Of a stretch of DNA of 64,000 bases, positions 989 to 64,000 are shown one piece after another. Below the pieces are notes generated by a model. That model saw only the letters and a list, made by a program, of their open reading frames with translations. It was not told the origin of the DNA and made no database searches. Each line of letters starts with the position of its first letter. Within the stretch, counting starts at the first letter, position 1. The DNA comes from an uncultured Gemmatimonadaceae bacterium (GTDB taxonomy: Bacteria; Gemmatimonadota; Gemmatimonadetes; Gemmatimonadales; Gemmatimonadaceae): contig CAWAGQ010000003.1 of assembly GCA_963781585.1 (NCBI GenBank), forward strand, positions 160,001-224,000. The letters are read 5' to 3'. A program made the translations under genes and the position numbers.

Positions 989-2194
989 GTGAGTCTGAAC
1001 GGGGGGTTTCGCGAAGATCTGAAGGCAAAGATCCGCCAGCTCAAGGCGGACCGTGTCTACAAGCGCCTCAACTACCTCTCCTCGCCGCAGTCGGCGCACG
1101 TAACGATGGAAGGACGGGGAGACGTGCTGATTCTGTCCTCCAACAACTATCTGGGCCTGTCGGACGAGCCGGAGGTTGTCGAGGCCGGACATGAGGGGCT
1201 GCGGAAGTACGGCGCGGGAACCGGGAGCGTCCGGTTCATCTGCGGCACGTTCGCGGTCCACCGGGAGTTGGAGCAGGCGCTGGCGCGGTTCGTGGGATGC
1301 GAGGCGTCGATGAGTTTCGTGTCATGCTGGAACGCCAACGAGGGGCTGACGCCGACGGTGCTGGAGGAAGGGGACGTGGTTCTGTCGGACGAGTTGAATC
1401 ATGCGTCCATCATCGACTCGATCCGGCTGGCGAAGTCGATAACGAAGTGCATGTCGGTGGTATTCAAGCACGGCGACATGGACGACCTGCGGGCCAAGCT
1501 GGCGGCGAATCGGGGGTCCAAGCGGAAGCTCATCTGGACCGATGGCGTGTTCTCGATGGAAGGGAGCGTGTGTCGCCTCCCCGACCTGCTCGAGATCGCA
1601 AGAGCGCACGATGCGGTGCTGGCGGTGGACGACTCGCACTCAACTGGAGTGCTGGGGAAGACGGGCCGGGGTACGGCGGAGCACTTCGGGGTGCTGGGGG
1701 AGGTGGACGTGATCACGTCGACATTGGGCAAGGCGTTAGGCGGCGCGGCGGGCGGGTTCGTGGCGGGACCGGACGTTCTCTGTGACATGCTGACGCAGCG
1801 CTCCCGTCCGCAGCTGTTCTCCAACGCCCTGCCGCCCACGGTGGCGTCGAGCGCCCTGGCCGCGGTGCGTTTCATCGAGAATCACCCGGAACGCGTGGAA
1901 CGCCTTCGCGAGAACACCCGCTACTTCCGTGCCGCCATCTCCGACGCCGGATTCAAGCCGCTTCCCGGGGAGACGCCGATCGTGCCGATCATCGTGGGCG
2001 ACACGGCGAAGGCGATCGAGATGAGCGACCTGATGCTGGGCGAGGGCATCTTCGTCACGGGGTTCGGCTATCCGGTGGTTCCGCAGGGAACCGCCCGCGT
2101 CCGGTGCCAGCTGTCGGCCGCACACACGCCCGATGACCTGGACTTCGCGGTGCGCGTATTCAAGAAGGTGGGAACGAAGCTGGGAATCGTGTAG
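989..2194 (+). CDS. kbl: Glycine C-acetyltransferase (2-amino-3-ketobutyrate CoA ligase)
   Basis: SNNYLGL, SVRFICGT, SDELNHASIID, DDSH and TLGKALGG (PLP Lys); GTG start at 989 with GGAG upstream; paired with tdh. Confidence 0.92.
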   Translation: MSLNGGFREDLKAKIRQLKADRVYKRLNYLSSPQSAHVTMEGRGDVLILSSNNYLGLSDEPEVVEAGHEGLRKYGAGTGSVRFICGTFAVHRELEQALARFVGCEASMSFVSCWNANEGLTPTVLEEGDVVLSDELNHASIIDSIRLAKSITKCMSVVFKHGDMDDLRAKLAANRGSKRKLIWTDGVFSMEGSVCRLPDLLEIARAHDAVLAVDDSHSTGVLGKTGRGTAEHFGVLGEVDVITSTLGKALGGAAGGFVAGPDVLCDMLTQRSRPQLFSNALPPTVASSALAAVRFIENHPERVERLRENTRYFRAAISDAGFKPLPGETPIVPIIVGDTAKAIEMSDLMLGEGIFVTGFGYPVVPQGTARVRCQLSAAHTPDDLDFAVRVFKKVGTKLGIV

Positions 2195-2452
2195 CCGCCC
2201 CGGCGGGCCGTCGCCCCCGGAGTGTGACGCAGGCTACAAAGGGCCTGTCAGCGGGCGTGACCACCTCGTTTGCATCCTCGTCCCTCCCATGAGCCTGCGG
2301 GGGCCGCTGGCGCCTGCCACGCGGCTCCCCCGACCTGTTCTCGTGTCGCGCCGATCGGGGCTCGCGAATCGGTGTTGCACGCGCTGCTCGACGGAGTGAC
2401 GCCCGTCCAGTGCGCACACACAACCTAACGCGCGTCATCTGAGGCTCAGCGT

Positions 2453-3121
2453 ATGCGCATGGCTTGCACGGCCGCCAAGGTATTCGCCGGTGTCGCCCTT
2501 CTCCCAGGGCTCGTGTTCGCCCAGGCGAACCGGTCGGCGAACTCGTTCAATGATTCGTGGTTCTGGGGCGTGAGCGGCGGCGTCATGCTGTTCAAGGCCG
2601 GCGTCGACCGGAGCACGCAGATCACCGCGCCCAGCGTAGGCGGCGAATGGCTCATCACGCGCACCCGCGTGGGGCTGCGGCTGTCGGTGGAACAGGCGTT
2701 CTTCAATGAACAGGCAGGCATCTTCGATCCCTCGTCGTCCGGCGGCGTGCGAGAGATCGATGTCAAGAATTGGCGCCGGTACAGCGGAGAGATCTACTTC
2801 TTCCCCGTCACCGACGGCAACCTGCGCCCGTACGCGGGCCTGGGCGTGGCGCTGAACGTCATCCAGAATTCGGTGCCCACGGGGTCGTTCTCGTCCGAGG
2901 GTCAGATGGATTCGGTGTTCGCCTCGGTCAACGAATTCAGCAGCCGCTCGTCGGCCGTCTTCACGGTGGGTGCGCAGATGGGTTTCAATCGCTCGGCCCT
3001 TTTCGTGCAGGCCAGCGCGATGCCCACCGGCGGGAACTTCCTGCTCAACCGCTCGCACTACACCTACATGGCGCAGGGCGGTATTCGTTACAACTTCGGA
3101 AACGCCATCGACAAGTTCTAG
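2453..3121 (+). CDS. Exported outer-membrane beta-barrel-like protein
   Basis: Signal peptide ending in VFA-Q; alternating aromatic beta-strands, RPYAGLG, C-terminal GGIRYNF. Confidence 0.7.
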   Translation: MRMACTAAKVFAGVALLPGLVFAQANRSANSFNDSWFWGVSGGVMLFKAGVDRSTQITAPSVGGEWLITRTRVGLRLSVEQAFFNEQAGIFDPSSSGGVREIDVKNWRRYSGEIYFFPVTDGNLRPYAGLGVALNVIQNSVPTGSFSSEGQMDSVFASVNEFSSRSSAVFTVGAQMGFNRSALFVQASAMPTGGNFLLNRSHYTYMAQGGIRYNFGNAIDKF

Positions 3122-3181
3122 CGGCGTCGGAGGGCTGCGGGTCGCCGCCACCTTCCGTCATGCGAGCGAAAAATCGAGAGG

Positions 3182-8679: not shown

Positions 8680-9299
8680 CGCAGGCCACAACCGCGCAGG
8701 CCACACCGCAGGCACCCACGCCGCCGGCGACGCCGGCGCAAACGCTCGATCAACAGATCGAGAAGACGGTCAATGACGCGGTCAACCAGGCGCTGCAGGG
8801 CGCGCAAGCCGGCGCAAACGGGGCCGAGGCGGGTCGGCTGGCAGCTCAGCGCGTGAAGGAGGCGATGGCGCGGGTGCGGGCCGAGATGGACGCGCGGGCC
8901 AACGGCGGGATTGCCGGTGTGGCGCAGGGGCCGGTGTTTCCGGCCGATGTGATCCCGCCGCAGGTCGTGGACATCACCACCGCCTTCTTCATCACCGTGG
9001 CGGTAATCGTCATCGGACTTCCGTTGGCACGGGCGATTGCACGAAGGATGGATCGCCGGGGCGCGCGGGAGGCGGTGGCACCACCACCCGAACTGGCGTC
9101 GCGGCTGGACCGGATCGAGCAGGGGATCGAGGCGATGGCGATCGAAGTGGAGCGAATCTCCGAAGGCCAGCGTTTCGCGACGCGGCTGATGTCGGAGATG
9201 CGGGGCCTGCCGGCGCCGAACCCGATGGCTGGACGAATGGCGCGCCCGGCGAACGAGGCGGAGCCGATTCCGGAACCGGCGGCCGAGCGCCGCGCCTAA
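8676..9299 (+). CDS. Single-TM coiled-coil protein with an N-terminal extension, paralog 4 of 4
   Basis: ATGA overlap and AGGAG RBS; ~100-aa Ala/Gln-rich N-terminus, then TM, then RLDRIEQGIEAMAIEVERISEGQRFATRLM. Confidence 0.85.
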   Translation: MTQATTAQATPQAPTPPATPAQTLDQQIEKTVNDAVNQALQGAQAGANGAEAGRLAAQRVKEAMARVRAEMDARANGGIAGVAQGPVFPADVIPPQVVDITTAFFITVAVIVIGLPLARAIARRMDRRGAREAVAPPPELASRLDRIEQGIEAMAIEVERISEGQRFATRLMSEMRGLPAPNPMAGRMARPANEAEPIPEPAAERRA

Positions 9300-9311
9300 C
9301 GAACTGCGGGC

Positions 9312-10848: not shown

Positions 10849-12603
10849 ATGCGTCGCCTAACCCTGCTCCTGCCCGCGCTGGTCGTTCCGCTCGCCGCCC
10901 CCGGGCAGGTGCCCTCGGTCCAGCGCGAGACCGTTCAGGTGGTCGAGTCCCGGAGTATCCCGCGCGACATCGCCGACGACGTGTCACGCCTGTTCAATGC
11001 CTCCTCCACAACGCGCCTCACGGGGACGCAGCAGATCGACAGCGGCCAGGTGGTTTCGCAGGACATCGCCATTCTCGACGGGTCGCTCACAATCGCCGGC
11101 CACGTCGCCGGGCGGCTGGTGGCGATCAACTCCGCGGTGGTCCTGCTGCCGGCGGCACGGATCGATCGTGACGTGACGATTCTCGGCGGTACGTTCGACT
11201 CCCGCGATCCGGACAACGTTACCGGCGACGTGCGGGTCTACGGCGATCGCGTCAACGTGACCCACGAGGACGATCGCATCGTTGTGCACGGCGACCCGGA
11301 CAGCGATCAGTGGTTCCGCCGGCACAGGCGATGGGAGACGCGCGCGTGGAGCGATCTGCGGCTGGTCTCCGCCCGAACGTACAGCCGGGTGGAAGGGCTG
11401 CCCCTCCTGCTCGGGCCGCTGTTCGGCCGCGAGTTCTCCTGGGGCCGGGTGTCAGTGGACGCACTGGGAATCATCCGGAGCGCCGACCGCTTCGACTGGA
11501 AGAGCGAGAATCTCGGGCACAGCCTGAAGACCGAGATCAGCGTCGGGAAGCGCGGCGGGATTCGCGTTGGCGGCCAGCTGTTCGACCTGGTGGATGCGGT
11601 CGAGCCCTGGCAGCTGTCGGACGCGGAGAACGGCCTTGCGTCGTTCTTTCTGCACCGTGACTATCGCGACTACTTCGATCGACATGGTGGCGCCGTCTAC
11701 AGCACGCTGTTCCTGGGGAACACCACCGATCTCACGCTGCGCTACAGCGCCGAGCGCTGGGGATCGCGTGACGCCCGCACGCCGTTCACGCTCTTTCGCC
11801 AGACGCAGGACTGGCGTCCGAATCCGCAGCTCGACGACGGCACGGTGCATCTGGTGAACCTGACGCTGCGGTACGACACGCGGAACGACGAACTCGAGCC
11901 GCGGTCGGGCTGGTACGTCAGCGCCGACTTCGAACACGGAAGTGGCCAGAGCCTGATTCCGGGACCGGCCTCCTGGGCGGCGCGCTTCGGTGCGCTGGAC
12001 CCGATCTACAATCGCGGGCTGCTGGACGTGCGACGCTACAATCGCGTCGCACCGGACGGGCAGCTCAACCTGCGATTGGTTCTGGGCGGATGGTTGGGCG
12101 GTGACGACCTCCCGCTGGAGCGTCGGTTCTCGCTGGGCGGTCCCGGCACGTTGCCCGGGTACGATTTCCGGCGGATCGAAGGGGGGACCGACTACTGGCA
12201 GTGTTCCGCACCGCCGGCCGCTCCATCCGGCCCTCCTCCGGCGGCGTATCCGGCGGGTCTTCCGGCGCAGTGCCAGCGGATCGCGCTCGCGCAAGCCGAG
12301 TACCGCGGCGTGATTCACGTGGATCCGTTAGGCATACTTGGCGAGGAGCGGGTGCGGCGGCGGAGCGGCTGGGGACGGACCGCCGAGTGGGTCGTGTTCG
12401 CGGACATGGGACGGGGTTGGCTGGTAGGCGAGCGGTTCGGAGCCCTGCGGTACGGAAGCAATGCCATCCCGCCGCTCAACACGTTTCGCGGTGATCTCGG
12501 GGTCGGGATCCGGCTCGATGACGTCGGGGTGTACGCCGCCAAGGCGCTGTCCAACTCCCACACACCGGTGAACTTCTTCGTGCGCCTTCGGCCGCGCTTC
12601 TAG
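10849..12603 (+). CDS. Exported Omp85/BamA-TamA-like beta-barrel protein with an N-terminal beta-repeat (bactofilin-like) region
   Basis: Signal peptide; YDTRN, RFSLGGPGTLPGYDF, VFADMGRGW; C-terminal FFVRLRPRF; N-terminal repeats like GSLTIAGHVAGRLVAINS. Confidence 0.7.
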   Translation: MRRLTLLLPALVVPLAAPGQVPSVQRETVQVVESRSIPRDIADDVSRLFNASSTTRLTGTQQIDSGQVVSQDIAILDGSLTIAGHVAGRLVAINSAVVLLPAARIDRDVTILGGTFDSRDPDNVTGDVRVYGDRVNVTHEDDRIVVHGDPDSDQWFRRHRRWETRAWSDLRLVSARTYSRVEGLPLLLGPLFGREFSWGRVSVDALGIIRSADRFDWKSENLGHSLKTEISVGKRGGIRVGGQLFDLVDAVEPWQLSDAENGLASFFLHRDYRDYFDRHGGAVYSTLFLGNTTDLTLRYSAERWGSRDARTPFTLFRQTQDWRPNPQLDDGTVHLVNLTLRYDTRNDELEPRSGWYVSADFEHGSGQSLIPGPASWAARFGALDPIYNRGLLDVRRYNRVAPDGQLNLRLVLGGWLGGDDLPLERRFSLGGPGTLPGYDFRRIEGGTDYWQCSAPPAAPSGPPPAAYPAGLPAQCQRIALAQAEYRGVIHVDPLGILGEERVRRRSGWGRTAEWVVFADMGRGWLVGERFGALRYGSNAIPPLNTFRGDLGVGIRLDDVGVYAAKALSNSHTPVNFFVRLRPRF

Positions 12604-16392: not shown

Positions 16393-18653
16393 AAGCCGGA
16401 GGTCGGAGGGCGGCGGCGGCGGGGAATGGCGAAGGGATTGGGGACTCCTCGAGGCGCCGGCCGCTTCGACGAATCGCCGGCGACGGTTCCGGCCGACCCC
16501 TGCAGACCGAAGGCGGCACGGGGCGGGATGGAAAACGGATTCGCGTCCGTGCAGAACCGATGGGGCTCGGTGCCAAGGAGGAAATATTCCGTGTACGAAT
16601 GCTCCAGACAGGCCGGCGTGGCGAGCAGTCCCGTTTGCGAGTCGATGTCGCGCGCGACCACCGAAGCCGGCATCGGCCAGTCCGGGGGGGCCGGTTTCCG
16701 CCGGTACGTCTCGAGCATGAAGGCGGTGTACGCGGGTGCAGCCAGCCGGCCACCCTGCGCGTTGACCATGATCTTCCTCGGTTTGTCGAACCCCATCCAG
16801 ACACCGGCCACCAGATCGGCCGTGTATCCGATGTACCACACGTCCGCGCCGTCGTTGGTGGTCCCGGTCTTGCCGCCGGAGGGTACGCGGAAACCGGCGC
16901 TCCAGACGCTGGCCGAGGCCGTCCCGCGGAGCACCACGTCCTTCATCATGCTCACCATGATCCACGCCTCGGACGGCGTGAGCACGACGGTGGACCTCGC
17001 GCTCGGCTGCCAGAGCAGGTTGCCCTCCTGATCCTCGACCCGGACGATCCCGTTAGGCTCGGTGCGCGTGCCAAGGTTCGCGAAGGTGGTGTAGGCCCCC
17101 ACCAGGTCCAGCGGGTAGACCTCGGCCGATCCGATGTGGATGGACGGATAGGGCGGAATGGGCGTACTGATGCCGAAGCGGCGCGCCTCGTCGACTACCG
17201 CCTGCTCACCGAGTTCCATGCCCAGCCTGATGGCGATCAGGTTGCGAGACATGTAGAGGCCCTGACGCATGGTCATCGGGCCCTCGAACTTGTTGTCGTA
17301 GTTCTGCGGGGTCCACAGCGATCCGTCCACCTGGGGCACGCTGATCGGCGCGTCGTCGATGAGCATCGACGGGGGCCGGCCGCTCTGGATCGCGGTCGAA
17401 TACACGATCGGCTTGAACGTGGAGCCGGGCTGGCGCATCGCCTGGGTGGCGCGATTGAACTTGGAATCGTCGTAGTCCCGGCCCCCCACCATCGCTCGTA
17501 CCGCGCCATCGCGCGGGTCGATCGCCACGAACGCCCCCTGCAGGTACGGCGACTCGGTGTCGAGATTCTCGTCGCGCACGCCGCGCGCGATGTACTGCTC
17601 ATACGTGAGATGCCGGTACGGACCCGACTTCCCTCCCTCAATCGCCCGGAGCTGATTCTCCAGTGCCCGTTCCGCCGCCGACTGCATGTCGAGATCGAGG
17701 GTGGTATACACTTTCAGACCCTGATCGTAGAGGCGATCACCGAACCGATCGTGGAGCTGCTGACGGACCCACTCGACGAAATACGGCGCGACCTCTCCCG
17801 ATTCGATGCGCCGCGCGAGGTGGAGCGGATAGGCCTTGGCCAGGCTGGCTGCCGACGAACTGACCTCGCCCTCACGCCGCATCAGCTCAATGATGGTGTT
17901 GCGGCGCTGGACGGCCCGCACCGGATAGCGGCGCGGATTGTATCGACCCGGGGCCTTGGGAAGCGCCGCCAGCGTCGCCGCCTCGGCAAGATTCAGATCG
18001 CGTACCGACTTGCCGAAATAGCGCTGGGCCGCCGTCTCGACGCCGTAGGCGCCGCTGCCGAGGTTGATCTGGTTCAGGTACAGCTCGAGAATCCGGTCCT
18101 TCGAGTAGCGGCGTTCGATGTCGCTTGCAACCCGGACCTCCTTCAGCTTGCGGACCAGCGACTTGAAGATCAGGGCCAGGGAGGACGAACGCTTCTCGCG
18201 CGAGATCTGCTCGGGGAAGACATTGCGCGCGAGCTGCATGGTGATGGTCGAGAAGCCCTGCTCGAACGAACGCGCGAGGAGGTCGCGCGCGGCCGCTCCG
18301 GGAATGCGCCAGAGGTCGACGCCGTGGTGCTGGTAGAAGCGCTTGTCCTCGATGGAAACGAAGGCGTCACTCACGACCCGCGGAATGGAATCGAGCGGCA
18401 CGAGCGTGCGCCGTTCCAGGCCAAGCTCACCCAGGAACCGGCCGTCCACGGCGTACAGGCGCGCGGTCTCGCGCGGCGAGTACTGCTCGAGCACGCCAAT
18501 GGAGGGGCACCGGTTCCCCTGGCACACCAGACTCCAGGCGGCGAGCGGAAGGGCCAGCGCGAACCCGGCGCCGAACGCCGCCGCGAACCCGAGCGCGCGC
18601 GTTAGGCCCGCATGACGGCGGACAAAGCGGTTCTGAAGGAATTCCGAGAACAT
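16389..18653 (-). CDS. Class A penicillin-binding protein (PBP1A family)
   Basis: Transglycosylase motifs EDKRFYQHHG, GFSTITMQLARN, RKLKE; transpeptidase motifs STFK, SRN, KTG. Confidence 0.95.
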   Translation of the reverse strand: MFSEFLQNRFVRRHAGLTRALGFAAAFGAGFALALPLAAWSLVCQGNRCPSIGVLEQYSPRETARLYAVDGRFLGELGLERRTLVPLDSIPRVVSDAFVSIEDKRFYQHHGVDLWRIPGAAARDLLARSFEQGFSTITMQLARNVFPEQISREKRSSSLALIFKSLVRKLKEVRVASDIERRYSKDRILELYLNQINLGSGAYGVETAAQRYFGKSVRDLNLAEAATLAALPKAPGRYNPRRYPVRAVQRRNTIIELMRREGEVSSSAASLAKAYPLHLARRIESGEVAPYFVEWVRQQLHDRFGDRLYDQGLKVYTTLDLDMQSAAERALENQLRAIEGGKSGPYRHLTYEQYIARGVRDENLDTESPYLQGAFVAIDPRDGAVRAMVGGRDYDDSKFNRATQAMRQPGSTFKPIVYSTAIQSGRPPSMLIDDAPISVPQVDGSLWTPQNYDNKFEGPMTMRQGLYMSRNLIAIRLGMELGEQAVVDEARRFGISTPIPPYPSIHIGSAEVYPLDLVGAYTTFANLGTRTEPNGIVRVEDQEGNLLWQPSARSTVVLTPSEAWIMVSMMKDVVLRGTASASVWSAGFRVPSGGKTGTTNDGADVWYIGYTADLVAGVWMGFDKPRKIMVNAQGGRLAAPAYTAFMLETYRRKPAPPDWPMPASVVARDIDSQTGLLATPACLEHSYTEYFLLGTEPHRFCTDANPFSIPPRAAFGLQGSAGTVAGDSSKRPAPRGVPNPFAIPRRRRPPTSGF

Positions 18654-33109: not shown

Positions 33110-33705
33110 TCTCCCAGGTCACCGGGCGGCTGATCGCGAAGGACGTGGATCGCGTCGAGGTCGCCACATCGGGAGGCGTAGCGTACGAGCTGGCGGTTCC
33201 CCTGAGTACGTTCGAACGCCTCCCGGCCGCCGGCCAGCAGATCACGCTGTTCACCGATCTGGTGGTGCGCGACGACGAGTGGTTGCTGTACGGTTTTGGA
33301 ACGCTGCTGGAGCGTCGGGTCTTCCGGCGGCTCCGTGGCGCCACCGGCGTGGGTCCGGCCCTCGCGTTAGGCATGCTGTCGCGGTTCGCCGCCGACCGGC
33401 TGGTGCGTGCCATTCGCGAGCGCGACGTGGCGGTGCTGCAGACCGTGCCGCGGGTGGGCCGCAAGAAAGCGCAGCAGCTGGTGCTCGACCTGGCGGACAA
33501 GCTGGACGACTTGCTGGAAGACGAAGGCGTCGTGCCGCGGACCGGGGGGTCGGCTGCCGACGACGCGATGCGCGCCCTGGTGTCGCTGGGGTATTCGGGC
33601 GTGGAAGCGGAGAAGGCGGTGCACGCGGCCCTGGACGGCGTGGACGGCATCCCCAGCGTGCCGAACCTCATTCGCGCAGCGCTGGCGAAGGTGGGCCGGG
33701 GCTGA
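33106..33705 (+). CDS. ruvA: Holliday junction branch migration protein
   Basis: GGVAYE, LYGF, GVGPALAL, ALVSLGY. Confidence 0.93.
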   Translation: MISQVTGRLIAKDVDRVEVATSGGVAYELAVPLSTFERLPAAGQQITLFTDLVVRDDEWLLYGFGTLLERRVFRRLRGATGVGPALALGMLSRFAADRLVRAIRERDVAVLQTVPRVGRKKAQQLVLDLADKLDDLLEDEGVVPRTGGSAADDAMRALVSLGYSGVEAEKAVHAALDGVDGIPSVPNLIRAALAKVGRG

Positions 33706-45313: not shown

Positions 45314-45915
45314 GGGACGCTGTACGCCGCGCGGGAGGCACTCGACGCGCGCTGGGGGCCGCGCGGACCCTGGTCGTGACGGTTCTGGCGCTGGCAGGGG
45401 TCGCCGGCATTCTACTGATGAGGCGGTCGCCCGACGCGGCGGCGCGGATGATCACGGTGGGCTCGACGGCTCCGGATTTCCTCGCCAAGACGCTCGACTC
45501 GGTGCCGAAGACCCGTAGCCTGGCCGACTATCGCGGCCAGGTGGTGCTGCTGAATCTGTGGGCGTCGTGGTGCGAGCCATGCCGGGTCGAGATGCCGAGC
45601 ATCGAGGCGCTGTACCGGCAGTTCGGACCGCACGGCCTCAAGGTGGTCGCGGTGGCCACCGACGATCCGGGGTTCGAGGATCGCGTGCGGTCGTTCGTGG
45701 CGCGCTACGGCCTCACCTTCGACGTCCTGAGCGAGGGATCCGGCAGGATCGAGCAGTCCTATCAGTCGTTAGGCATTCCATCCACCTTCCTGATCGGACG
45801 CGACGGGATGATCCGCAAGCGGGTCACCGGGGCCTCCGACTGGAGTTCTCCCGCCAACCAGGCGCTGGTGTCGCAACTGCTCGGCATCCCACTGCCCTCC
45901 GCCGGCGGATCATGA
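45310..45915 (+). CDS. TlpA/ResA family thiol-disulfide oxidoreductase
   Basis: TM anchor, NLWASWCEPCRVEMP, GIPST. Confidence 0.92.
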   Translation: MRDAVRRAGGTRRALGAARTLVVTVLALAGVAGILLMRRSPDAAARMITVGSTAPDFLAKTLDSVPKTRSLADYRGQVVLLNLWASWCEPCRVEMPSIEALYRQFGPHGLKVVAVATDDPGFEDRVRSFVARYGLTFDVLSEGSGRIEQSYQSLGIPSTFLIGRDGMIRKRVTGASDWSSPANQALVSQLLGIPLPSAGGS

Positions 45916-46994
45916 CCGTCGTGCTGGGAGTGGAGACGTCGTGCGACGAGACCTCCGCGGCGGTGGTGGCCGGCTGCGGCGACGAGGTGACGCAGCGTTC
46001 GCTGGTGATCCTGTCGCAGGACGTTCACCGCGTATTCGGCGGCGTGGTTCCCGAGATCGCATCGCGGGCGCATCTCACGGCGATCGTTCCGGTGGTCGGG
46101 CGCGCGCTCGCCGATGCCGGCGCGTCGCTCGATGACGTGGACGTGGTGGCGGTGACGAACGGTCCCGGACTGGTGGGAGCGCTGCTGGTGGGTTTGAGTT
46201 TCGCGAAAGCGATGGCGTTCGCGCGGGGCAAGCGACTGATCGGGGTGCACCACATGGAGGGCCACCTGTTCGCCCAGTCGCTCGAGCACGCCGACGCCGT
46301 TCCCCCGTTCACCGCGCTCCTCGTTTCGGGCGGGCACACGATGCTGATCGACGCCCCGGCGTGGGGGACCTATCGCCTGCTGGGAGCGACGCGGGACGAC
46401 GCCGCCGGCGAGGCGTTCGACAAGGTCGCCAAGCTGCTGGGCCTGCCCTATCCCGGCGGCCGGCCGGTCGAGCGCCTGGCGCGCGACGGCGATCCGCGCC
46501 GGTTCCACTTCGCGCGCCCGATGCTCCGACGCAGCCAGGCACCCGGGGACGACGATTACTACGACGTATCGTTCAGCGGCCTCAAGACCGCGGTGCTGCA
46601 TGCGGTGCGCGGGTCGCCCGATCCGGAGGGCGATCGGCCGCACCTGGCGCGCGGCTTTCAGGACGCCCTGATCGAGACGCTGGTGGAGAAGACCTACCGT
46701 GCGGCCGCCCGGTTCGGGCGACGACGGGTGGTCCTGGGCGGCGGCGTGGCCTGCAACGGTGCGCTGGCCGACGCGATGCGCGAGCGACTGTCCTCGTTAG
46801 GCGCCGAGCTGTTCGCGCCGAGTCCGCGGCTGGCCACCGATAACGCGGCGATGATCGCCCGCGCCGGCCTGTTTCGCGCCGAAGCCGGCGCCCGCGACGG
46901 CTGGGATCTGAACGCCTATGCCAGCCTCCCGCTCCCCGGCCTGGTCCAGGACCGGCACCCCGGTCGTCGCATCAGGAAGATGGCTGCCGGGTAG
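45912..46994 (+). CDS. tsaD: tRNA N6-adenosine threonylcarbamoyltransferase
   Basis: GVETSCDET, GGVVPEIASRAH, HHMEGH, SGGHT, TDNAAMIA. Confidence 0.97.
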   Translation: MTVVLGVETSCDETSAAVVAGCGDEVTQRSLVILSQDVHRVFGGVVPEIASRAHLTAIVPVVGRALADAGASLDDVDVVAVTNGPGLVGALLVGLSFAKAMAFARGKRLIGVHHMEGHLFAQSLEHADAVPPFTALLVSGGHTMLIDAPAWGTYRLLGATRDDAAGEAFDKVAKLLGLPYPGGRPVERLARDGDPRRFHFARPMLRRSQAPGDDDYYDVSFSGLKTAVLHAVRGSPDPEGDRPHLARGFQDALIETLVEKTYRAAARFGRRRVVLGGGVACNGALADAMRERLSSLGAELFAPSPRLATDNAAMIARAGLFRAEAGARDGWDLNAYASLPLPGLVQDRHPGRRIRKMAAG

Positions 46995-47071: not shown

Positions 47072-47926
47072 ATGCCCATCATTCACCATCCGCTCGAGAT
47101 CCACATCGGTCCGCTTCCCCTCACCGGGTTCGGTATCGCGGTAATGCTCGCGTTCGTGCTCTCGAATTTCATCGCCGAGCGGGTACTGGAGCGGCGCGGC
47201 CATCCGGATTCGGCCCGGGCCATCCCCGATCTCATCATCGCCTGCATCGTGGGGACGCTGATCGGCGGCAAGCTGTACTACGCAGGCATCGTGACGCACA
47301 ACTGGCATGATCTCTTCGGGCGCGCAGGGTTCGTGTTCTGGGGAGGGTTCACCGGTTCAGTGCTGGCAAGCTGGTTGTACATCTGGTACAAGAAGCTCTC
47401 CTTCGTCCGGTTTGCCGACGTCGCGGGCATCTGCATCGCGGCCGGCTACTCGGTGGGGCGCACCGGATGCTGGGCGGTGGGCGACGACTACGGCCGCCCA
47501 TGGAACGGCCCGCTGGCCGTGCTGTTCCCCAACGGATCGCCGCCGTCCACCGCCGAGAACATGCGACAACTGTTTCACCTGCCGGTGCCGGCCGGGGTCG
47601 CGAGCGACACCGTGCTGTCGGTCTACCCGACGCAGCTGCTGGAAGTGGCGCTCGGGTTCGTGATGTTTCTCGTCCTGTGGCGCTACCGCGACCACCGACA
47701 TGCGGAGGGGTGGCTCTTCGGGCTGTGGGCGGTCCTGGCCGGCCTGGAGCGCTTCGCGGTCGAATTCCTGCGCGCCAAGGACGATCGTTTTCTCGGGACC
47801 CTGACTCTGGCCCAGGCAATCGCGCTGGCGGTGACGGTGATCGGCGCCCTGGTGATGTACTGGCGCTGGAACACCGGTCCCGCGCGACCCGGGATCCGCC
47901 CGCTCCCGGCCCACCAGGCTCGTTAG
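47072..47926 (+). CDS. lgt: Prolipoprotein diacylglyceryl transferase
   Basis: Multi-TM; GRTGCWAVGDDYG, YPTQLLE, RFAVEFLR. Confidence 0.9.
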   Translation: MPIIHHPLEIHIGPLPLTGFGIAVMLAFVLSNFIAERVLERRGHPDSARAIPDLIIACIVGTLIGGKLYYAGIVTHNWHDLFGRAGFVFWGGFTGSVLASWLYIWYKKLSFVRFADVAGICIAAGYSVGRTGCWAVGDDYGRPWNGPLAVLFPNGSPPSTAENMRQLFHLPVPAGVASDTVLSVYPTQLLEVALGFVMFLVLWRYRDHRHAEGWLFGLWAVLAGLERFAVEFLRAKDDRFLGTLTLAQAIALAVTVIGALVMYWRWNTGPARPGIRPLPAHQAR

Positions 47927-48013
47927 GCTCCCGCGTGTGCCCGGTCCGGCGGCGACCGCGGGGCCAGTCGCCGACGCCCGGCCGTCGTCAACCCCGGAGG
48001 GTGGACGGGCTGC

Positions 48014-50308
48014 TCAGGTGCGACGGTCGGACGACGGGACGGGTCCCACCCGCTCGGCGGCCTCGATGGCCTGCTCCAGTTCCTCGAGGCGCCGTTCCAG
48101 ATGCGCCATGCGCTGGCCCAACTGCTCCACCCGGGGTCCCAGTACGGAAGCTCGTTCCACCGCGCGAGGCGCAGCGGCGTCGGCCGGAGCCATCGGCAGC
48201 GCGACCGACCGGCGCGGCCAGAACGTCCTGAGCAGCGCAAACACGAACAGCGCCACCAGCACGACCTGCGCGAGCAGCGTCTCGACGGTCGCGAAGACCC
48301 CCATCTTCTCGGCCTGGGGCCAACCCGGCAGCACCGTCCAGGAGACGATGTTGGCCTCCTGCAGCTCGTGAATGCCCTTCCCCACGAACACGAACGCCAG
48401 GTAGTACAGGAGCGCGCTGGTCACCGCAAAGAACGGTCTCAGCGGGATCCGCACGCCGTACCGATAGAAGAGGGTGAAGACCACCACCAGCCCGGCCGCG
48501 CCGGCGAGCAGTCCGAGTGCGATTGCCAGGCCGTGACCACCGGCGTCCTGAAAGAGCGCCTGGTAGAAGAGGGCCGTCTCCGCGCCTTCACGATACACCG
48601 CCAGGAACGCCACGAATGCCAGCGTCTTCCCGCCGCCGCGTTCCAGCGCCGCGGTCACCTTGTCGCGGATGAACTGCTGCCAGCGGGCGGCTTCGACCTT
48701 GGAGATGAGCCAGTAGCTCACCGAGAACAACACGGCGACCGCCACCAGCATGGTGATGCCTTCGATGATCTCGCGGCTGGCGGGAATGGCGCTGAGGAGG
48801 GTCGCCAGCACCACCGCCGTGAGCAGACTCGCGCCCAGCCCGCCCAGCACGCCGGCCCAGATCGATTTCAGCCGCTCCCGATGCCCGGTCTTCAGCAGGA
48901 ATGCCACGATCGCGCCGATCACCAGGATGGCCTCGAAGCCTTCGCGAAGAATGATCAGCAGCGACTGGAGAAAGGCCCCCCACCGACCAGCGGTCGGCTC
49001 GTTGAGCGCGACGATGTCGGGCAGCCGCTCCTGGATGATGTTTCGCGACGCTTCTGCCTGACGCGGGTCATTGCCGTTGATCGCTCCACGGAAGTCCGCG
49101 AAGTGACTCTCGAGCGAGCCGACCAGCCCCGGATTGCGCGCGCGGGCCGGGGTCTCCAGCGGTTCGAACGCGATGTAGGCATCGAACGCGCGGTCACTGG
49201 CCTCGCCGCGCCGTCCCGCGCGCGCGGCTTCCAGCGCCTCGTCCAGTATCGCCAGGACTTTCCGGGCGGTCAGGGCCGGCTCGGACGATTGCGCGGCTGC
49301 CGGGGGAGCCTGCACGTCGTTGAGCGCCAGGGTCCGGATGTACGCGACAATCCGGCTGATGTCGGCCTCGCCGAGGTCGCGCGAGGGGGGCATTGCCGTT
49401 CCGGCGATGCCCCGCCGCACGACCTCGGCGATCTGACCGTCGCTGCGCTCGGCCTGCCAGGCGAACGAGGACAGTTCGATCGGGAGACGCGAGAGCGCCG
49501 CGCTCAGCGTGCCGTTCGACCCGCCGGCGGCGCCGTGGCACTCGGCGCACTGCCGGACGTACAGTCCCTGCCCTTCAGCCCGCGGCGCGGGGGCCCGCAG
49601 GGACACCGCGTACTCAACGACATCCCACCGTTGATCGGGCGTCAGATCGGGCGCGAAGCTCACCATCGCGGTGCCGGCAACCCCGACCGACACGATGCGG
49701 AACATCATCGCCGGCGTCACGTCGCGCATCGCCGACGCGCTGCCTAACGCGGGCGGTGGCGTGGACGTGGTGTGGGCCATCGGGCCGTCGCCCTGACCGT
49801 GCATGCCGTGGCAGCTCGCGCAACGCGCCTCGAAGGTCCGCTGCCCGGCCGCCAGATCCACCGGCCGCGAGGGGAGGTCGAGCGCCGCTTCGGCGCCCAG
49901 CGACTCCATGATCAGCCGCACGAACGGCGCCAGGGCCGCCGGCGGCACACGCCGCGCGGTCAGCGCCGACAGCGAGTCGAGACCCGCGCGCGCCGAGTCC
50001 GCCCTATTGCCGCTGAGTCGCCCGGCCGACTCCCTGGCATCCCTGAGAAACGCGATCGCTTCCCGGTACTCGGTCGCCGAGATCAGCCGGCCCGCGGAAT
50101 CGACGCCCTTGGCGTATTCCTCCACCGCCACCCCGGCGATGTAGGCGACACGCTTCGCCGGACGATCCTGCGCCGCCGCCACGCGCACCAGGACGAGGAA
50201 CATCGGCAACCCGCGCACCAGGGCCATTCCGGCGCGCGACTGCCTCCACCGGTGCATCCTTCCGGGTCCGGCCGTCGGCCGCTGAGCGGGTGCTGCGTTC
50301 CAGGGCAT
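48014..50308 (-). CDS. Cytochrome c-FTR1 iron/lead permease fusion (PbrT-like)
   Basis: Two heme motifs CASCH and CAECH; FTR1 motifs LREGFEA and YREGAET; start uncertain (50308, 50257 or 50227). Confidence 0.88.
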   Translation of the reverse strand: MPWNAAPAQRPTAGPGRMHRWRQSRAGMALVRGLPMFLVLVRVAAAQDRPAKRVAYIAGVAVEEYAKGVDSAGRLISATEYREAIAFLRDARESAGRLSGNRADSARAGLDSLSALTARRVPPAALAPFVRLIMESLGAEAALDLPSRPVDLAAGQRTFEARCASCHGMHGQGDGPMAHTTSTPPPALGSASAMRDVTPAMMFRIVSVGVAGTAMVSFAPDLTPDQRWDVVEYAVSLRAPAPRAEGQGLYVRQCAECHGAAGGSNGTLSAALSRLPIELSSFAWQAERSDGQIAEVVRRGIAGTAMPPSRDLGEADISRIVAYIRTLALNDVQAPPAAAQSSEPALTARKVLAILDEALEAARAGRRGEASDRAFDAYIAFEPLETPARARNPGLVGSLESHFADFRGAINGNDPRQAEASRNIIQERLPDIVALNEPTAGRWGAFLQSLLIILREGFEAILVIGAIVAFLLKTGHRERLKSIWAGVLGGLGASLLTAVVLATLLSAIPASREIIEGITMLVAVAVLFSVSYWLISKVEAARWQQFIRDKVTAALERGGGKTLAFVAFLAVYREGAETALFYQALFQDAGGHGLAIALGLLAGAAGLVVVFTLFYRYGVRIPLRPFFAVTSALLYYLAFVFVGKGIHELQEANIVSWTVLPGWPQAEKMGVFATVETLLAQVVLVALFVFALLRTFWPRRSVALPMAPADAAAPRAVERASVLGPRVEQLGQRMAHLERRLEELEQAIEAAERVGPVPSSDRRT

Positions 50309-54434: not shown

Positions 54435-54448
54435 CCGCCGCCTAACGA

Positions 54449-54509: not shown

Positions 54510-57500
54510 TCAGCGCTTCTTCGGGTTCCGGACCTCCTCCCGCTGGCCGAACGGCGAGCCACTGTCGTCGCCGCCGCTCGCGCGCTCAACCCGCAACAGC
54601 TGCCTGTAGGTGTTGCCGCCGGCCTTGAGCGTGACCAGGTAGTCGCCAGTGTTCACCGCCGACGCTCCTCCGCCACCGAAGCCGCCACCACGTCCCCCAC
54701 CACCGCCACCGGTGAACGCGGCCAACACCGCGCCGAGTGGGTTGCCGCGACCTCCGAAGCCGCCGCCGCCTCTGCCGCTCGGCACCCCACCGGGACTGAG
54801 CAGCTGCGCGAGTGCTTCGGCGCCACCCGGGAAGTCGGCGTATGGATCGGCGGCACCGGCGCCACCGCGCCCTCCGCCCCCGCCGCGCGCACCCGCCGGT
54901 CCGCCCTCAGCCGGACGCGGATTCCACACGCCGGGTTGCCCCCCGCCTCCCCGCCCTCCGCCCCCACCACCACCGCGCCCTCGTCCGAAGGCCGCGAACG
55001 CACCGGCACCGCCCGTCAACGTCTGCCTCATCCGATCCAGAGATGCCTTCGGGACGGAGCCGGCCTTTTCCACCGAGTCGAACACGACGTCGATGCGGCG
55101 CGCGAGATTCGCGCTGTCACGCCGCTGCGATGGAGATAGCTCCGGCCGCGGCGGCGGCGGTCCGCGGAAATCCCACGTCACGCGATGCAACCCCGGGTTC
55201 GCCGGTCCGTTGAGCGTGGTCACCGTGTCCCCCTTCGCGTCGGTGATTACGAGCTCCACCTGCGGCCCGCCACCGCGGCCACCGCGACCACCCGCCGGCG
55301 CTGCCGCCGGACCAGCGGCGGCCGCCATCCCACCCGTAATGCGATACACGATCTCGGCACCGTACTGCGGGCTCGACACCGACCAGAAACTCTGCGCCGT
55401 GCCGTTACCCGACTCGCCCATCGCCACGCCTTGCCCGTACTCGTAGGCGGTGCCGGGCGAGAACAGGTGAACGTTCTCGGCGATGACCTTGGCGTTGTCG
55501 GGGCCGGCCATCTGCTCGAGCGGAGCAATATCCACGATCCAGAAGCTGCGTCCGTGCGTGGCCGCGATCAGTTCGCGGTCGCGCGGATGAATCTGCAGGT
55601 CGTACACCGGCACCGTGGGCATACCAGGCATGAAGCGCTGCCACGCCTTTCCGCGGTTCAGCGACACGTACACGGCACGCGACGTACCCAGGAACAGCAG
55701 GTCGCGGTTGTGTTGATCCTCGCGAATCACGTGCACGTAGTCGGCCGGGCTCTCGGTCGGCAGATCGTTCCGGATCGACGTGAACGTCTTGCCGCCGTCG
55801 GTGGTCACGTAGACGTACGGCGTGAAGTCGTTGTTGCGATGGTTCTCGAACGAGATGTAGAACGTGAGCGAGTCGAAGTGCGAGGGTTCGATGCGGCTCA
55901 CGTAGATATCTCCGGCCGCGAGTCCGGCGAACCGGCTCACCGGAATCTGATCCCACGTGGTTCCGTCGCTCTTCGTTACCCATACGTTGCCGTCGTCGGT
56001 GCCGGCGTAGAGGTACCCGGCGCGCACCGGCGATTCCGCCAGCGACACTACCGTGCCGTAGGTCTCGGCCCCGGTGGCGTCACGCGTGATGCCGCCCGTG
56101 TAGACCATGCTCGTGTCGATCTTCCCCATCTGCTTCTTGGAGAGGTCGGGGGAGATCGAAAACAGGTTGTCGCCGCGCTGGGTCGACTTGAGCACGTGGT
56201 TGCCGCCGATGTAGAACACGTCGGGATTGTGCGGCGACAGGAAGTACGGCGTCTCCCAGTTGAAGCGCATCTCGCCTTCCACCGAGTCGGCTTTCTGCCG
56301 TGACCGAAGCTCGGTGATGTGCGCCTGCTGTTCCCTGGTCACCGGGCGCGTGGTGTCGCCGCGCACGAAGTACAGCGAGTCCTCGAACATCAGGTACTCC
56401 GGACGCCAGTTCGGCTTCACCAGCCCTGAACGCTCGCCGGTGCGGAGGTTGAGTCGCGACACGTTGCCGCCCTGCGACTCGCCCCACACGATCCACGGCT
56501 CGCTGGGATGCTGGGCCGTGTAGAAGCCGTCGCCTCCGGAAATGGTGAACCAGTAGTTGTTGGTGATCGGACCGTTCTTGCGACGGCTCGGCCCGCACCA
56601 GGCACCGTTGTCCTGTGCCCCGCCGCAGATGTTGTACGGAATCTCGTAGTCGTAGCTCACGTCGTAGAACTGGCCGATCGGAATGTTCATCGGATACCAG
56701 AAGTTCCCGCCGCCGTCGAACGTGATGGCGATCCCGCCATCGTTGCCGATGATGAAGTGGTCGGGATCACCCGGGTCGATCCAGAAGGCGTGGGTGTCGA
56801 CGTGCACGTCCTGCGCGGCCGTGCGGGCCGTCTTGCCACCGTCATAGGAGAACAGCACCGGCGTGGACGAGAACCAGACGTGCTCGGAGTTCCGCGGATC
56901 GACCCGCACCTGCGAGTAATAGAAGGGACGGGTGTCGGCGTCGTTCATCTTCTCCCACGTCTTCCCGCCGTCGGTAGTGCGATAGAGGCCGGTCTTGAGC
57001 TGCTGCCGCTCCTGCCCGGCCTTCGGCTTGGGGTTGGGGAGCGAATCGGCTTCAACCTCGGCGTACACGATGTCGGTGTTGCCGGGGAAGATGGAGAAGC
57101 TGATGCGTCCCTTCTGCGTCTCGGGGAATCCGCCGCCCTTGATCTCGGTCCAGCTGGCGCCGCCGTCAGTGGACTTGAAGAGCGCCGAACCCGGCCCTCC
57201 GCTGGTGAGGAAGTATGGTCCACGCACCCGCTGCCAGGCCGAGGCCCAGACCACGTTGGGGTTCCTGGGGTCGAGGCCCACGTCGATGAAACCCGCCTTG
57301 TCACTCACGAACTTGATCTGCTTCCAGGTCTGGCCGCCGTCTTCGGTCTTGTAGAGGCCCCGTTCCGGATTCGCCTTCCACGCCGCGCCTAACGCGGCGA
57401 CGTAGACGATGTTGGGATTGGTGGGATGCACCACGATGCGGCCGATGTGCTGGGTCTTCTCGAGCCCCATCAGCTTCCAGGTGATGCCGCCGTCGGTGGA

Positions 57501-61101: not shown

Positions 61102-61170
61102 GCGAGCGCGCTGGGTGCGACGGCCCTTCGGTGCAGTCGATCCGGCCGGTCAGTCCGGCACGAAGGCTCC

Positions 61171-62782: not shown

Positions 62783-62976
62783 ATGGCTCCGGGCCGCGTC
62801 ACACCCGTCGCCGCCAGCCCCTCCTCCTGGCACTTCCGGCAATAGCGAACGCCGCGCATCGAACACATCAGACAGATGAACGTGCCGCACCCGTCGCAGG
62901 GATAGCCCTCGGAGGCACGCTCCTCGTTGCCGCAGGCGCGACAAACCATCGCGTCGTGTTCGTGTAGCTTGCTCAT
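62779..62976 (-). CDS. Small zinc-finger protein (4 x CxxC)
   Basis: CRAC, CDGC, CLMC and CRKC in 65 aa; AGAGGA RBS; GTGA overlap with the peptidase. Confidence 0.75.
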   Translation of the reverse strand: MSKLHEHDAMVCRACGNEERASEGYPCDGCGTFICLMCSMRGVRYCRKCQEEGLAATGVTRPGAM

Positions 62977-63118
62977 GAGATCATCCTCTGCAGTCCGGGA
63001 CACCAGGTCCCCGAATGTCCGGTGATATGGCCCTCACGAAGTACCCGAGAACGGCCCGACCGCCATGCGTGCGCACCGCGGAATCTTACGTGGCGCGCCG
63101 GCGCGTCGAAACAGCGCT

Positions 63119-64000
63119 TCATGTCGTGCTCTGCTCCGTCACCGCCCCTTCCGGTACCTCGTCGAAGGTGACGATCACGCCGCGATCCAGGTGAGGCGCG
63201 GCGGTGAGGTGAAGCCACCGGCCCGTCCCCGGGATCTGCACCGTGCCGCGCACCATGGTGCCCTCGCGCAGCGCGCGTTCGATGGGCCGGTCATCGTTAG
63301 GCGATGGGATCGCGCCGACGATCGCCTCGTAGAACGTCCGGCCGGCGAGTTCGCGCGGCTCGGTGTCAAGGGCGAGCTGGCGCGCCCGCTCATTATGTCG
63401 CACGATCCGCCCGGCATCATCCACGATCACCATCCCCACCCCGATCGCTTCGAACGTCGAGGTCCAGGCGCGCGACGCCTCGCTCAGCTCCTCGAACAGG
63501 CGCGCATTCACAATCGCCACCGCCACCTGATCGGCCAGCCGCTGCAGCACCCGCGCGTCCTCGCCGCCGAAATCGTCGGCCCGGTTGAAGAGCATGAGCG
63601 CGCCGAGCACTCCCCGGGAAGTCGACAGGGGCGCCACGATCATCTTCTCCACCGGGGCGAACCGCAGCGCCGGACGATACGTCCCTGGATCGCCCGACAC
63701 GTCGTTGGAGATGATCGTCGTCCCTTCGAGCACCGCGCGTCCGGCAATGCTGCCCGCCAGCGGGATGTGGACGCCGGAAAGCAGGTCCGCCATGCCCACC
63801 GCAGCCACGATGTGCAGATACTTTCCTTCGCGCAGTCCCACACACGCGCCGTCGCTGCGCAACAGTCCGGTGGCGTGACGAAGAATGAGGCGCACCACCT
63901 CGCCCATCCGCAGCGACGCGCTCACCGCCCGGGCCGCGTCCGCCAGCGCCTCGATCTGGCGGCGCTCGCGTTCGCTCTCGGCGAACAGCTGCGCGTTGCT
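63119..64000 (-). CDS. GAF/PAS sensory protein (5' end outside the window)
   Basis: GAF domain (APL...GAL...F...D..VL..LADQVAVAIVNARLF) followed by a PAS-like segment, then stop; frame is open to the window end. Confidence 0.85.
   Translation of the reverse strand, partial: SNAQLFAESERERRQIEALADAARAVSASLRMGEVVRLILRHATGLLRSDGACVGLREGKYLHIVAAVGMADLLSGVHIPLAGSIAGRAVLEGTTIISNDVSGDPGTYRPALRFAPVEKMIVAPLSTSRGVLGALMLFNRADDFGGEDARVLQRLADQVAVAIVNARLFEELSEASRAWTSTFEAIGVGMVIVDDAGRIVRHNERARQLALDTEPRELAGRTFYEAIVGAIPSPNDDRPIERALREGTMVRGTVQIPGTGRWLHLTAAPHLDRGVIVTFDEVPEGAVTEQSTT

Follow-up and report, generated by a model that had tools for sequence, protein, structure and literature searches.

A 64,000-nucleotide stretch of a contig from an uncultured soil bacterium of the Gemmatimonadaceae (positions 160,001 to 224,000 of CAWAGQ010000003.1, here called the window) carries 20 exact copies of the octamer CGTTAGGC, and the question raised by this locus is what process writes so short a word into so many places and keeps it there. 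We followed the word through the window, through the 5.72-Mb assembly of the source genome (G000, 17 contigs, in which the window is G000:C3:160001-224000) and through related genomes. CGTTAGGC is selected or generated at the level of the DNA and acts on double-stranded DNA; as a hyperabundant tag of whole genomes it is new to its phylum, in which an organism that can be cultured is available for tests. As to its function, we tentatively favour, with somewhat less than even confidence, a tag for DNA uptake or transformation that may have been spread by recombination-coupled drive, in analogy with the DNA uptake sequence (DUS) of the Neisseriaceae and the uptake signal sequence (USS) of the Pasteurellaceae. 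An earlier interpretation, made from the letters of the window alone (the sequence-only reading), had listed several mechanisms; an uptake-like sequence is the best fit among these, which is less than a proof. To our knowledge, sequence-biased DNA uptake is established only in the Neisseriaceae and Pasteurellaceae and suspected for the word HIP1 (GCGATCGC) in cyanobacteria, which is reportedly attributed to transformation in bioRxiv preprints (2024.09.10.611283 and 2025.10.24.684340) as well. A literature search, covering main texts without supplements, found CGTTAGGC or its reverse complement GCCTAACG as a word in no paper and found no paper that joins Gemmatimonad* and 'uptake sequence', nor, among the papers listed, anything about competence or abundant words in Gemmatimonadota; the Gemmatirosa genome paper (PMC3974934) does not mention CGTTAGGC.

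Abundance of the word in the window, the source genome and its relatives

The 20 copies in the window, 12 as CGTTAGGC and 8 as GCCTAACG, stand in the number and at the positions that the sequence-only reading had given. In 100 dinucleotide-preserving shuffles of the window the mean was 0.95 copies and the maximum 4, and 20 copies were reached in none. The four single-mismatch copies that had been added to this count are in fact 43, and the 63 matches with at most one mismatch, compared with 43.5 in the shuffles, are at chance level; only 4 of the 43 retain the GTTAGG core, and these were probably the ones meant. Nearly every TTAG or CTAA of the window was said to sit in the motif, and 20 of 24 do so, as do 13 of the 14 TTA codons in the open reading frames (ORFs) called in the window. 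The reading frames are also as claimed: 13 copies are read as xCG-TTA-GGC (A/S/P-L-G), three antisense as CCT-AAC, one as CTA-ACG, two lie at stop codons and one is intergenic. The copies are the following, with positions, strand and context:

1734..1741, +, sense, GCG-TTA-GGC (A-L-G), in the class I/II aminotransferase ORF 917-2191
9294..9301, -, read GCC-TAA-CG on the + strand, TAA being the stop of ORF 8676-9296 (no Pfam family)
12326..12333, +, sense, CCG-TTA-GGC (P-L-G), in the Omp85-family ORF 10849-12600
17051..17058, +, antisense, GAG-CCT-AAC-GGG (E-P-N-G), in the PBP1A ORF 16392-18653(-)
18600..18607, +, antisense, GGC-CTA-ACG (G-L-T), in the PBP1A ORF 16392-18653(-)
28561..28568, -, sense, GCG-TTA-GGC, in the response-regulator/PglZ (PorX-like) ORF 27274-28878(-)
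30630..30637, +, sense, CCG-TTA-GGC, in the alpha/beta hydrolase ORF 30533-31399
31173..31180, +, sense, TCG-TTA-GGC, in the alpha/beta hydrolase ORF 30533-31399
33365..33372, +, sense, GCG-TTA-GGC, in ruvA (33106-33702)
35193..35200, -, sense, GCG-TTA-GGC, in the PAS-GGDEF-EAL ORF 34986-37037(-)
35925..35932, -, sense, TCG-TTA-GGC, in the PAS-GGDEF-EAL ORF 34986-37037(-)
38439..38446, -, antisense, AAG-CCT-AAC-GAG (K-P-N-E), in queA (38374-39411, +)
42134..42141, +, sense, GCG-TTA-GGC, in fmt (41581-42510)
45767..45774, +, sense, TCG-TTA-GGC, in the AhpC/TSA-redoxin (TlpA-like) ORF 45295-45912
46795..46802, +, sense, TCG-TTA-GGC, in tsaD (45912-46991)
47921..47928, +, read CGT-TAG-GC, TAG being the stop codon of lgt (47072-47923)
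49742..49749, -, sense, GCG-TTA-GGC, in the cytochrome c/FTR1 ORF 48017-50257(-)
54440..54447, -, intergenic, in the spacer between the convergent ORFs 54012-54431(+) and 54513-57878(-)
57387..57394, -, sense, GCG-TTA-GGC, in the Sortilin/BNR-repeat ORF 54513-57878(-)
63295..63302, +, antisense (CCT-AAC frame), in ORF 63122-64498(-), which runs past the window end

The gene at 27274-28878, which the sequence-only reading had called PorX-like, indeed encodes a response-regulator receiver fused to a PglZ domain.

Genome-wide, G000 holds 1442 copies (724 + 718 on the two strands), compared with 217, 89, 44 and 51 expected under Markov models of order 0, 1, 2 and 3. CGTTAGGC is by a wide margin the most over-represented octamer of this genome (z ~194), with a 28- to 33-fold excess over Markov expectation. 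Genes were called with a home-made caller based on codon likelihood and on the G+C content of third codon positions (GC3), which gave 4738 ORFs covering 87.5% of the genome. Within these ORFs 1154 copies were observed and 49.8 ± 5.5 are expected from synonymous-codon shuffling (20 shuffles, the largest 64), so that the codon-preserving check put forward in the sequence-only reading leaves the excess standing. Neither are TTA codons equally common elsewhere, since 767 of the 1437 in G000 lie within CGTTAGGC. A second over-represented word family of this genome comprises AGGCCAAA/TTTGGCCT (331 versus 28 expected), AAAGGCCA, CCTTTGGC and GGCCAAAG; AGGCCAAA is the next unrelated octamer, and the AGGCCAAA/TTTGGCCT family is probably part of a longer dispersed repeat.

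Among 31 close genomes, seven hold at least 100 copies per Mb and are here called rich, namely G000 (252), G001, G005, G009 (1247), G014, G015 and G030; two are intermediate, and in the others CGTTAGGC stays below the reversed control word. The same density is reached by 17 of 401 Gemmatimonadota genomes, 13 of 95 in the family of the window and 4 of 166 in a second family (all of genus g75), and by none of the 135 genomes of other orders or classes; the scanned set includes G008, G077, G116, G195 and G446, which are motif-poor where counted. On a FastTree tree of RuvB, QueA and Tgt from 63 genomes (RuvB 62, QueA 45, Tgt 35), with rows picked to cover the rich genomes and a spread of poor ones and with G008 left out, richness is clustered, requiring 9 parsimony changes versus a mean of 19 (minimum 13) in 500 label shuffles. 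The clade of G000 comprises 10 genomes, 9 of them rich (support 0.91), and densities among related lineages range from ~35 to 1250 per Mb. The word also abounds in a cultured organism: on the two megaplasmids of Gemmatirosa kalamazoonensis KBS708 we counted 40 copies per 50 kb (0.8 expected) and 34 per 50 kb (0.5 expected).

Frames, strands and spelling of the word

All four stop-free frames of CGTTAGGC are enriched in G000 over the codon shuffle, by 8- to 52-fold (observed/expected 767/14.7, 279/24.2, 70/3.6 and 38/4.7), and sequence outside the ORF calls holds 189 copies versus 14 expected. This upholds the view of the sequence-only reading that the word arises at the DNA level. Even stop codons are built into it, with 70 of the 1418 TAG and 44 of the 374 TAA stops of G000 lying in a copy. 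The word occupies 15% of the [ASPT]-L-G tripeptides and 24% of the antisense P-N-[VADEG] contexts, and just 2.7% and 1.0% of the contexts that need two rare codons. The sense bias of 70:30 mirrors the frequency of the peptides concerned and not a strand-specific process. Copies are evenly spread along genes, and their density is 0.23 per kb in genes, 0.39, 0.26 and 0.20 in convergent, tandem and divergent spacers, and 0.19-0.34 across all 17 contigs.

In strongly GC-skewed 50-kb segments the raw strand counts are 193:144 and 124:153. This 57:43 skew is due to gene orientation, because the sense fraction is equal in leading- and lagging-strand genes (70.2% versus 70.9%), and the density is equal as well (0.234 versus 0.241 copies per kb). 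A replication polarity of the type of Chi or of the FtsK-orienting polar sequences (KOPS) is thereby ruled out, and the description of the word as non-palindromic and not strand-polarised holds. This bears directly on the possibility that CGTTAGGC is a Chi-like signal, read by a helicase-nuclease at DNA ends, that protects own or incoming DNA and triggers recombination. Chi of E. coli is likewise an octamer and has a similar density (one per 4 kb), and octamer length, over-representation and a spacing of about one per few kb are shared with Chi, KOPS and the SpoIIIE recognition sequences (SRS); moreover, if incoming fragments survived preferentially, the resulting drive would have footprints identical to those of an uptake bias. 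The missing polarity sets the word apart from all of these, and its 28- to 49-fold excess is far above that of Chi. The machinery argues in the same direction, as RecC is present in one of the 31 genomes, which is not G000, and the PD-(D/E)XK family gives a single weak match in G000 (31 bits, a 557-aa open frame) that is not an AddAB pair, in a search that did not extend to AdnAB or other nucleases. The Chi-like signal suggested by the sequence-only reading has thus found no backing, and we consider it very improbable.

The flanks of CGTTAGGC show no extended consensus and differ by at most 0.07 bit per position from those of same-frame control words; the only preference is a weak one for 'not C' before the word and a purine after it (D-CGTTAGGC-R). 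The absence of an extended consensus excludes a mobile element. The notion that a short mobile element left the copies behind as relics, or that they result from a bias in codon usage or composition, has nothing to recommend it beyond the abundance itself, while neither the Markov models of order 0-3 nor the codon shuffle come within 20-fold of the count and the word uses the rarest leucine codons; refuted by flanks, Markov models and codon shuffles, it retains practically no probability.

The spelling itself is tightly defined. Only four one-letter variants are enriched in G000, namely C1T (TGTTAGGC, 5x), T4C (CGTCAGGC, 2.7x; 1211 copies versus 415 by codon shuffle), G6T (CGTTATGC, 4.8x) and C8T (CGTTAGGT, 7.8x), within a full range of 0.3-8x expectation, and combining two tolerated changes brings the count back to background (~1x). 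A 284-kb sample of the rich genome G009 contains 341 copies (1.2 per kb, 49x over expectation) and repeats this profile, with 13x, 2x, 6.6x and 25x for C1T, T4C, G6T and C8T; C8G (10x), C8A (5x) and C1A and C1G (~4x) are additionally raised. In both genomes letters 1, 4, 6 and 8 tolerate change and changes at G2, T3, A5 and G7 are not tolerated, a profile that, judged from these counts, looks like one recognition surface common to G000 and G009.

Maintenance and spacing of the copies

G001 and G000 belong to the same genus and align over 316 kb at ~88% identity. In this alignment 63/79 of the G000 sites and 63/75 of the G001 sites are retained, compared with 43% for all 8-mers and 23-55% for control words. 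A second comparison comes from within the assembly of G000 (contamination 7.2%), where contigs C5 and C8 (446 and 434 kb) are syntenic over ~356 kb at ~88% identity with equal motif density; the assembly therefore seems to hold parts of two related genomes. Over these 356 kb the word is retained at 74/89 and 74/92 sites, and all 8-mers at 41%. Conservation at orthologous positions, which the sequence-only reading had proposed to look for, is accordingly present, with 80-84% of copies kept versus 41-43% of all 8-mers. The flanks of shared copies are close in identity to the alignment average (0.886 versus 0.883 and 0.883 versus 0.875 in the two comparisons), and those of shared control words lie above it (0.916 and 0.910). 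Since the flanks are average and the word is retained at 80-84%, it is the word itself that is maintained.

Sites that differ between the compared genomes often carry one of the tolerated variants CGTTAGGT, CGTCAGGC or CGTTATGC instead. Motif-poor genomes spell the equivalent peptides with CTG or CTC, for example as CGCTGGGC or CGCTCGGC, so that a new copy needs at least two synonymous changes, and neither of the intermediates between the CTG/CTC form and CGTTAGGC is enriched. Between G009 and G000, 16 of 51 G000 sites are also copies in G009.

The overall spacing in G000 is near exponential, with a coefficient of variation (CV) of 1.0, and close pairs are strongly lacking. When the observed numbers were scattered over real coding contexts and non-coding positions in 300 simulations, gaps below 100 bp numbered 35.7 ± 5.9 (8 observed), below 200 bp 72 (20 observed), below 500 bp 173 ± 12 (68 observed) and below 1000 bp 327 (211 observed), and 0 of the 300 simulations were equally low. 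Gaps of 1-4 kb are in excess; only 3 are shorter than 50 bp, and inverted pairs at terminators are few. In G009 the repulsion reaches to ~200 bp, with an excess at 300-800 bp (CV 0.87), and 100 kb of the Gemmatirosa plasmids gave a CV of 0.76. Such mutual avoidance is not expected of a context-free mutational bias; it is expected of a process whose unit is a DNA fragment.

Two further patterns concern the coding contexts that the word can use. In the parts of G009 aligned to G000 proteins it occupies 33% of xLG, 52% of PN, 35% of xLT and 23% of VR contexts, and PN[VADEG] contexts number 82 in G009 versus 48 in the aligned G000 parts. This excess hints that the pressure may reshape protein sequence, a distortion that is seen only for G009 versus G000, the samples for G000 versus poor genomes being too small and not independent. 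In G000 the occupancy of contexts rises about 17-fold with the GC3 of the ORF, from 1.6% in the lowest 5% through 5.7%, 10.8%, 19.3% and 24.5% to 26.6% in the top decile, whereby the lowest bins may include false ORFs from the caller. Because CGTTAGGC itself lowers GC3 and uses rare codons, the gradient is not compositional and runs counter to the prediction from expression-linked codon bias; recombination, through biased gene conversion, or residence time would be a fitting link.

Maintenance and spacing together bring up an explanation in which CGTTAGGC is the binding site of an abundant chromosomal protein (nucleoid-associated, condensin-loading or architectural) and the sites are kept by selection for chromosome organisation. 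A tolerance profile that resembles protein recognition and is alike in two genomes, under-dispersed spacing, conservation independent of the flanks and a similar density in genes, intergenic DNA, the 17 contigs and the Gemmatirosa megaplasmids would all suit such a protein. Per-site selection on thousands of sites would however be very weak, yet rare codons are found at 15-52% of usable contexts and PN dipeptides were apparently added in G009; the 17-fold rise with GC3 also has no reason under this explanation. The analysis turned up no candidate protein, most relatives are without the word, and we judge the explanation unlikely.

A repair or methylation-linked conversion bias, the older idea for HIP1 and very-short-patch repair, could make CGTTAGGC from near-matches independently of uptake. 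It would act in all frames and on both strands, and the non-tolerated one-letter neighbours indeed lie mildly under Markov expectation (0.6-0.9x). Against it, the way from CTG or CTC to TTA takes two changes with intermediates that are not enriched, and a context-free bias does not predict the repulsion between copies. The enzymes do not fit richness either. Vsr occurs in 4 of the 31 genomes, G000 and three motif-poor ones, and was not found in the rich G001, G005, G009, G014, G015 and G030; a C5-methylase is likewise found in 4 of 31 and does not track the motif. In G000 a C5-methylase and Vsr are adjacent (a Dcm-Vsr pair at C7:477177-478451), as they are in motif-poor G007. PacBio RS detects 5-methylcytosine (5mC) poorly. 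The methylome of G. kalamazoonensis, obtained by sequencing single molecules in real time (SMRT), has RGATCY, ATGCAC and CCAGN7TCA as its only methylated motifs (PMC3974934). None of these three N6-methyladenine (6mA) motifs overlaps CGTTAGGC, which is therefore not a 6mA site there; 5mC lies outside that assay, a point in favour of the conversion bias. The methylation-driven motif of the sequence-only reading has lost support, the word being absent from the published motifs and neither enzyme tracking it, and a conversion bias appears improbable to us.

A proposed uptake-type tag and the integron coincidence

We return to the reading that we favour, an uptake-type tag. A sequence-preferring step would act on incoming DNA during natural transformation, most likely at binding by the type IV pilus/ComEA uptake machinery or, alternatively, at a later acceptance step. 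Fragments with CGTTAGGC would be more likely to be taken up and recombined, and homologous replacement would then amount to biased gene conversion, a molecular drive that would write the word wherever coding allows and keep existing copies. A second copy on one fragment would bring little gain. The GC3 gradient would be expected if both GC3 and occupancy follow recombination or residence time. Competence of the organism, a preference of uptake or integration for CGTTAGGC and the assignment of a protein as its reader are inferred.

Like DUS and USS, CGTTAGGC is a short non-palindromic word present in hundreds to thousands of copies on both strands, in genes in the least costly frames, in intergenic DNA and at gene ends. 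Its excess falls steeply with mismatches and its positions are unequally tolerant; a steep fall is also given for USS and DUS in the available part of PMC1939737 (183x/2x/0.2 for USS, 392x/4.8x). Copies are stable at orthologous sites, more evenly spaced than by chance and restricted to certain lineages. USS are evenly spaced as well (Karlin, cited in PMC1939737), DUS spacing is described as matching the size of conversion fragments (PMC2397512), and proteome and uptake sequence are described as coevolving (PMC2817400), in agreement with the PN excess of G009, each in the portion of the source at hand. The present word differs in being known from genomes alone, with no ComP-like reader among the candidates tried, in its hosts, which are Gemmatimonadota (soil, 63-74% G+C) and not Proteobacteria, in its 30-fold varying density as one word, and in having few inverted pairs at terminators and no copies in the recA region.

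HIP1 of the cyanobacteria resembles CGTTAGGC in being a very abundant octamer with orthologous conservation, quasi-periodic spacing and a patchy phylogeny; its function, long obscure, has now been connected with transformation and with genes of the type IV pilus (PMC13756078, in the part available). In contrast to CGTTAGGC, HIP1 is a palindrome that two methyltransferases recognise, and it influences transformation in a methylation-dependent way (PMC13756078, same part), whereas CGTTAGGC is not among the Gemmatirosa 6mA motifs and C5-methylases do not track it.

A number of observations weigh against an uptake tag. The flank identities bear no trace of recent exchange around shared copies, and a dip in identity around gained or lost copies was seen in one of the two comparisons only. 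The longest motif-free stretch (C4:866743-905435, 38.7 kb) contains core genes (alaS, recX, recA, ftsK, accC, a pilT-like gene, hutU, hutH, lptD and tatC) and not foreign DNA, and another large gap, in the arg/gidA/parA region, is core DNA too, such gaps being not clearly significant given the few usable contexts. The region C7:158-198 kb, rich in insertion sequences (IS) and integrases, holds 14 copies and is not depleted; the depletion in islands that the sequence-only reading had proposed to look for was thus not seen. The identical word is abundant in ~8 separate Gemmatimonadales lineages on the three-gene tree, whose deep branches are weak and leave the number of origins uncertain. Uptake systems that arose independently should use different words, as is the case for DUS and USS, so that an uptake tag needs an ancestral reader or horizontal transfer. 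Nor do the poor relatives have words of their own ('dialects'): none appeared in 80-kb samples of G003, G087, G029 and G020, and 80 kb of a fifth, G291, gave a local hairpin repeat only, while 80 kb of G000, as a positive control, yields CGTTAGGC. The genomes G008, G077, G116, G195 and G446 contribute to the tallies only, and none of the claims rests on them. Further points against the tag are that no reader protein tracking CGTTAGGC emerged among the few candidates tried, that no study of competence or biased uptake in Gemmatimonadota was found in the literature search, and that the identity of CGTTAGGC with the core of integron attC sites, described below, lacks an explanation under the uptake model.

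The repeat in G291 is a side observation. At G291:C1:1580001-1660000 four loci carry inverted pairs ~100 nt apart, with tandem heptads GACGTTR followed by ...ACAAACCTCGAGGCCAG; it is a REP- or MITE-like intergenic hairpin family, and the heptad also fits GTTRRRY.

The genes for uptake are present in G000, with pilins, PilB, PilT, two secretins, a ComEA-like protein, ComEC, DprA and RecA. At G000:C14:143982-147884 a ComEA-like HHH_3 protein lies directly upstream of PilB (MshEN + T2SSE), followed by a gene for a PilT-like ATPase, an adjacency of ComEA and PilB that recurs in relatives of three families (e.g. G003, G029 and G020), and an operon of GspH/FimT-like minor pilins is found at C12:2138-5104. 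ComEA, PilB and the GspH/FimT-like pilin occur in rich and poor genomes alike among the 31 and do not track the word, which also counts against the uptake tag; the toolkit is necessary, not discriminating. The sequence-only reading had proposed to look for co-occurrence with ComEA, an orphan methyltransferase or a tyrosine recombinase; ComEA, the C5-methylase and the integron integrase do not follow richness in the 31 genomes.

If an uptake tag is what CGTTAGGC is, it would be a third or fourth such system, and tags would be a recurrent solution and not a proteobacterial oddity, here in an abundant, poorly studied soil phylum. One fixed word at ~35-1250 per Mb would offer a natural dose series for models of molecular drive, and the motif-free close relatives make a phylogenetic-profile hunt for the reader possible. 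Gemmatirosa kalamazoonensis KBS708, a type strain with 0.7-0.8 copies per kb on both megaplasmids, allows direct tests of uptake, binding and methylation. CGTTAGGC could further mark foreign DNA and aid binning, and may help to open Gemmatimonadota to genetic work. A testable question follows from its identity with the integron core, namely whether transformation and cassette capture are linked.

The integron core follows the rule GTTRRRY, with RYYYAAC as inverse core (PMC3053210, as far as its available part goes), and the match of CGTTAGGC to this rule, which the sequence-only reading had noted, is real; the chance that an octamer contains such a match is ~0.4%. The few copies present in motif-poor relatives are grouped on individual contigs, with one strand used and a copy every 500-630 bp; these groups are integron cassette arrays. 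Here the copies are, letter for letter, the R' core G/TTAGGC plus the preceding C of ~90-nt attC sites with the inverse core GCCTAACA. The array at G021:C95:1-20000 has 24 copies, 23 of them on one strand, with cassettes mostly of 480-760 bp; further array loci are G019:C3:1-9000 and G021:C43, and clusters in G021, G019 and G029 have the features of attC. Bottom-strand attC hairpins of -32 to -38 kcal/mol were obtained for 5 of 7 sites folded. Moreover, the R'' arm GCCTAACA, when reverse-complemented, gives TGTTAGGC, which is among the one-letter variants that are enriched.

One may thus ask whether CGTTAGGC was spread or kept as an integron core, with the integrase or a relative binding or nicking G/TTAGGC chromosome-wide. 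Besides the match to the arrays, to GTTRRRY and to TGTTAGGC, it would speak for this that integrases are common in the order (TIGR02249 over cut-off in 18 of the 31 genomes) and that a fixed core would explain the identical word in separate lineages. Their presence is however irrespective of motif richness: no integrase was found in the rich G005 and G015 and only broken pieces in G009, and many poor genomes have one. The tolerated T4C change breaks the GTT triplet, and copies stand in frame within conserved housekeeping genes without junction scars. An inverse core lies 30-150 nt upstream of merely 14 of the 1442 copies of G000, the other 1428 standing without one and alone in genes, and hairpin scans found no cassette array beside the G000 integrase (C7:185885-186829). 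The dispersed copies of G000 are not attC sites. What stands of the integron suggestion is the core match, and a spread of the word as an integron core we hold to be highly unlikely.

A related, quite improbable variant keeps both the core identity and the uptake tag: the reader would be a DNA-entry or acceptance system whose specificity coincides with the universal integron attC core. DNA with cassette recombination sites would then be imported preferentially, and chromosomes and megaplasmids would be saturated with the word as a by-product of drive. Transformation would be coupled to cassette capture, and the identical octamer of separate lineages would be explained.

The surroundings of the G000 integrase are themselves rich in mobile genes. 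Within G000:C7:158001-198000 it is flanked by an IS21 element and by two identical modules, each consisting of a 301-aa tyrosine recombinase and an IS91-family Y2 transposase, and a third copy of this 301-aa recombinase lies on C13.

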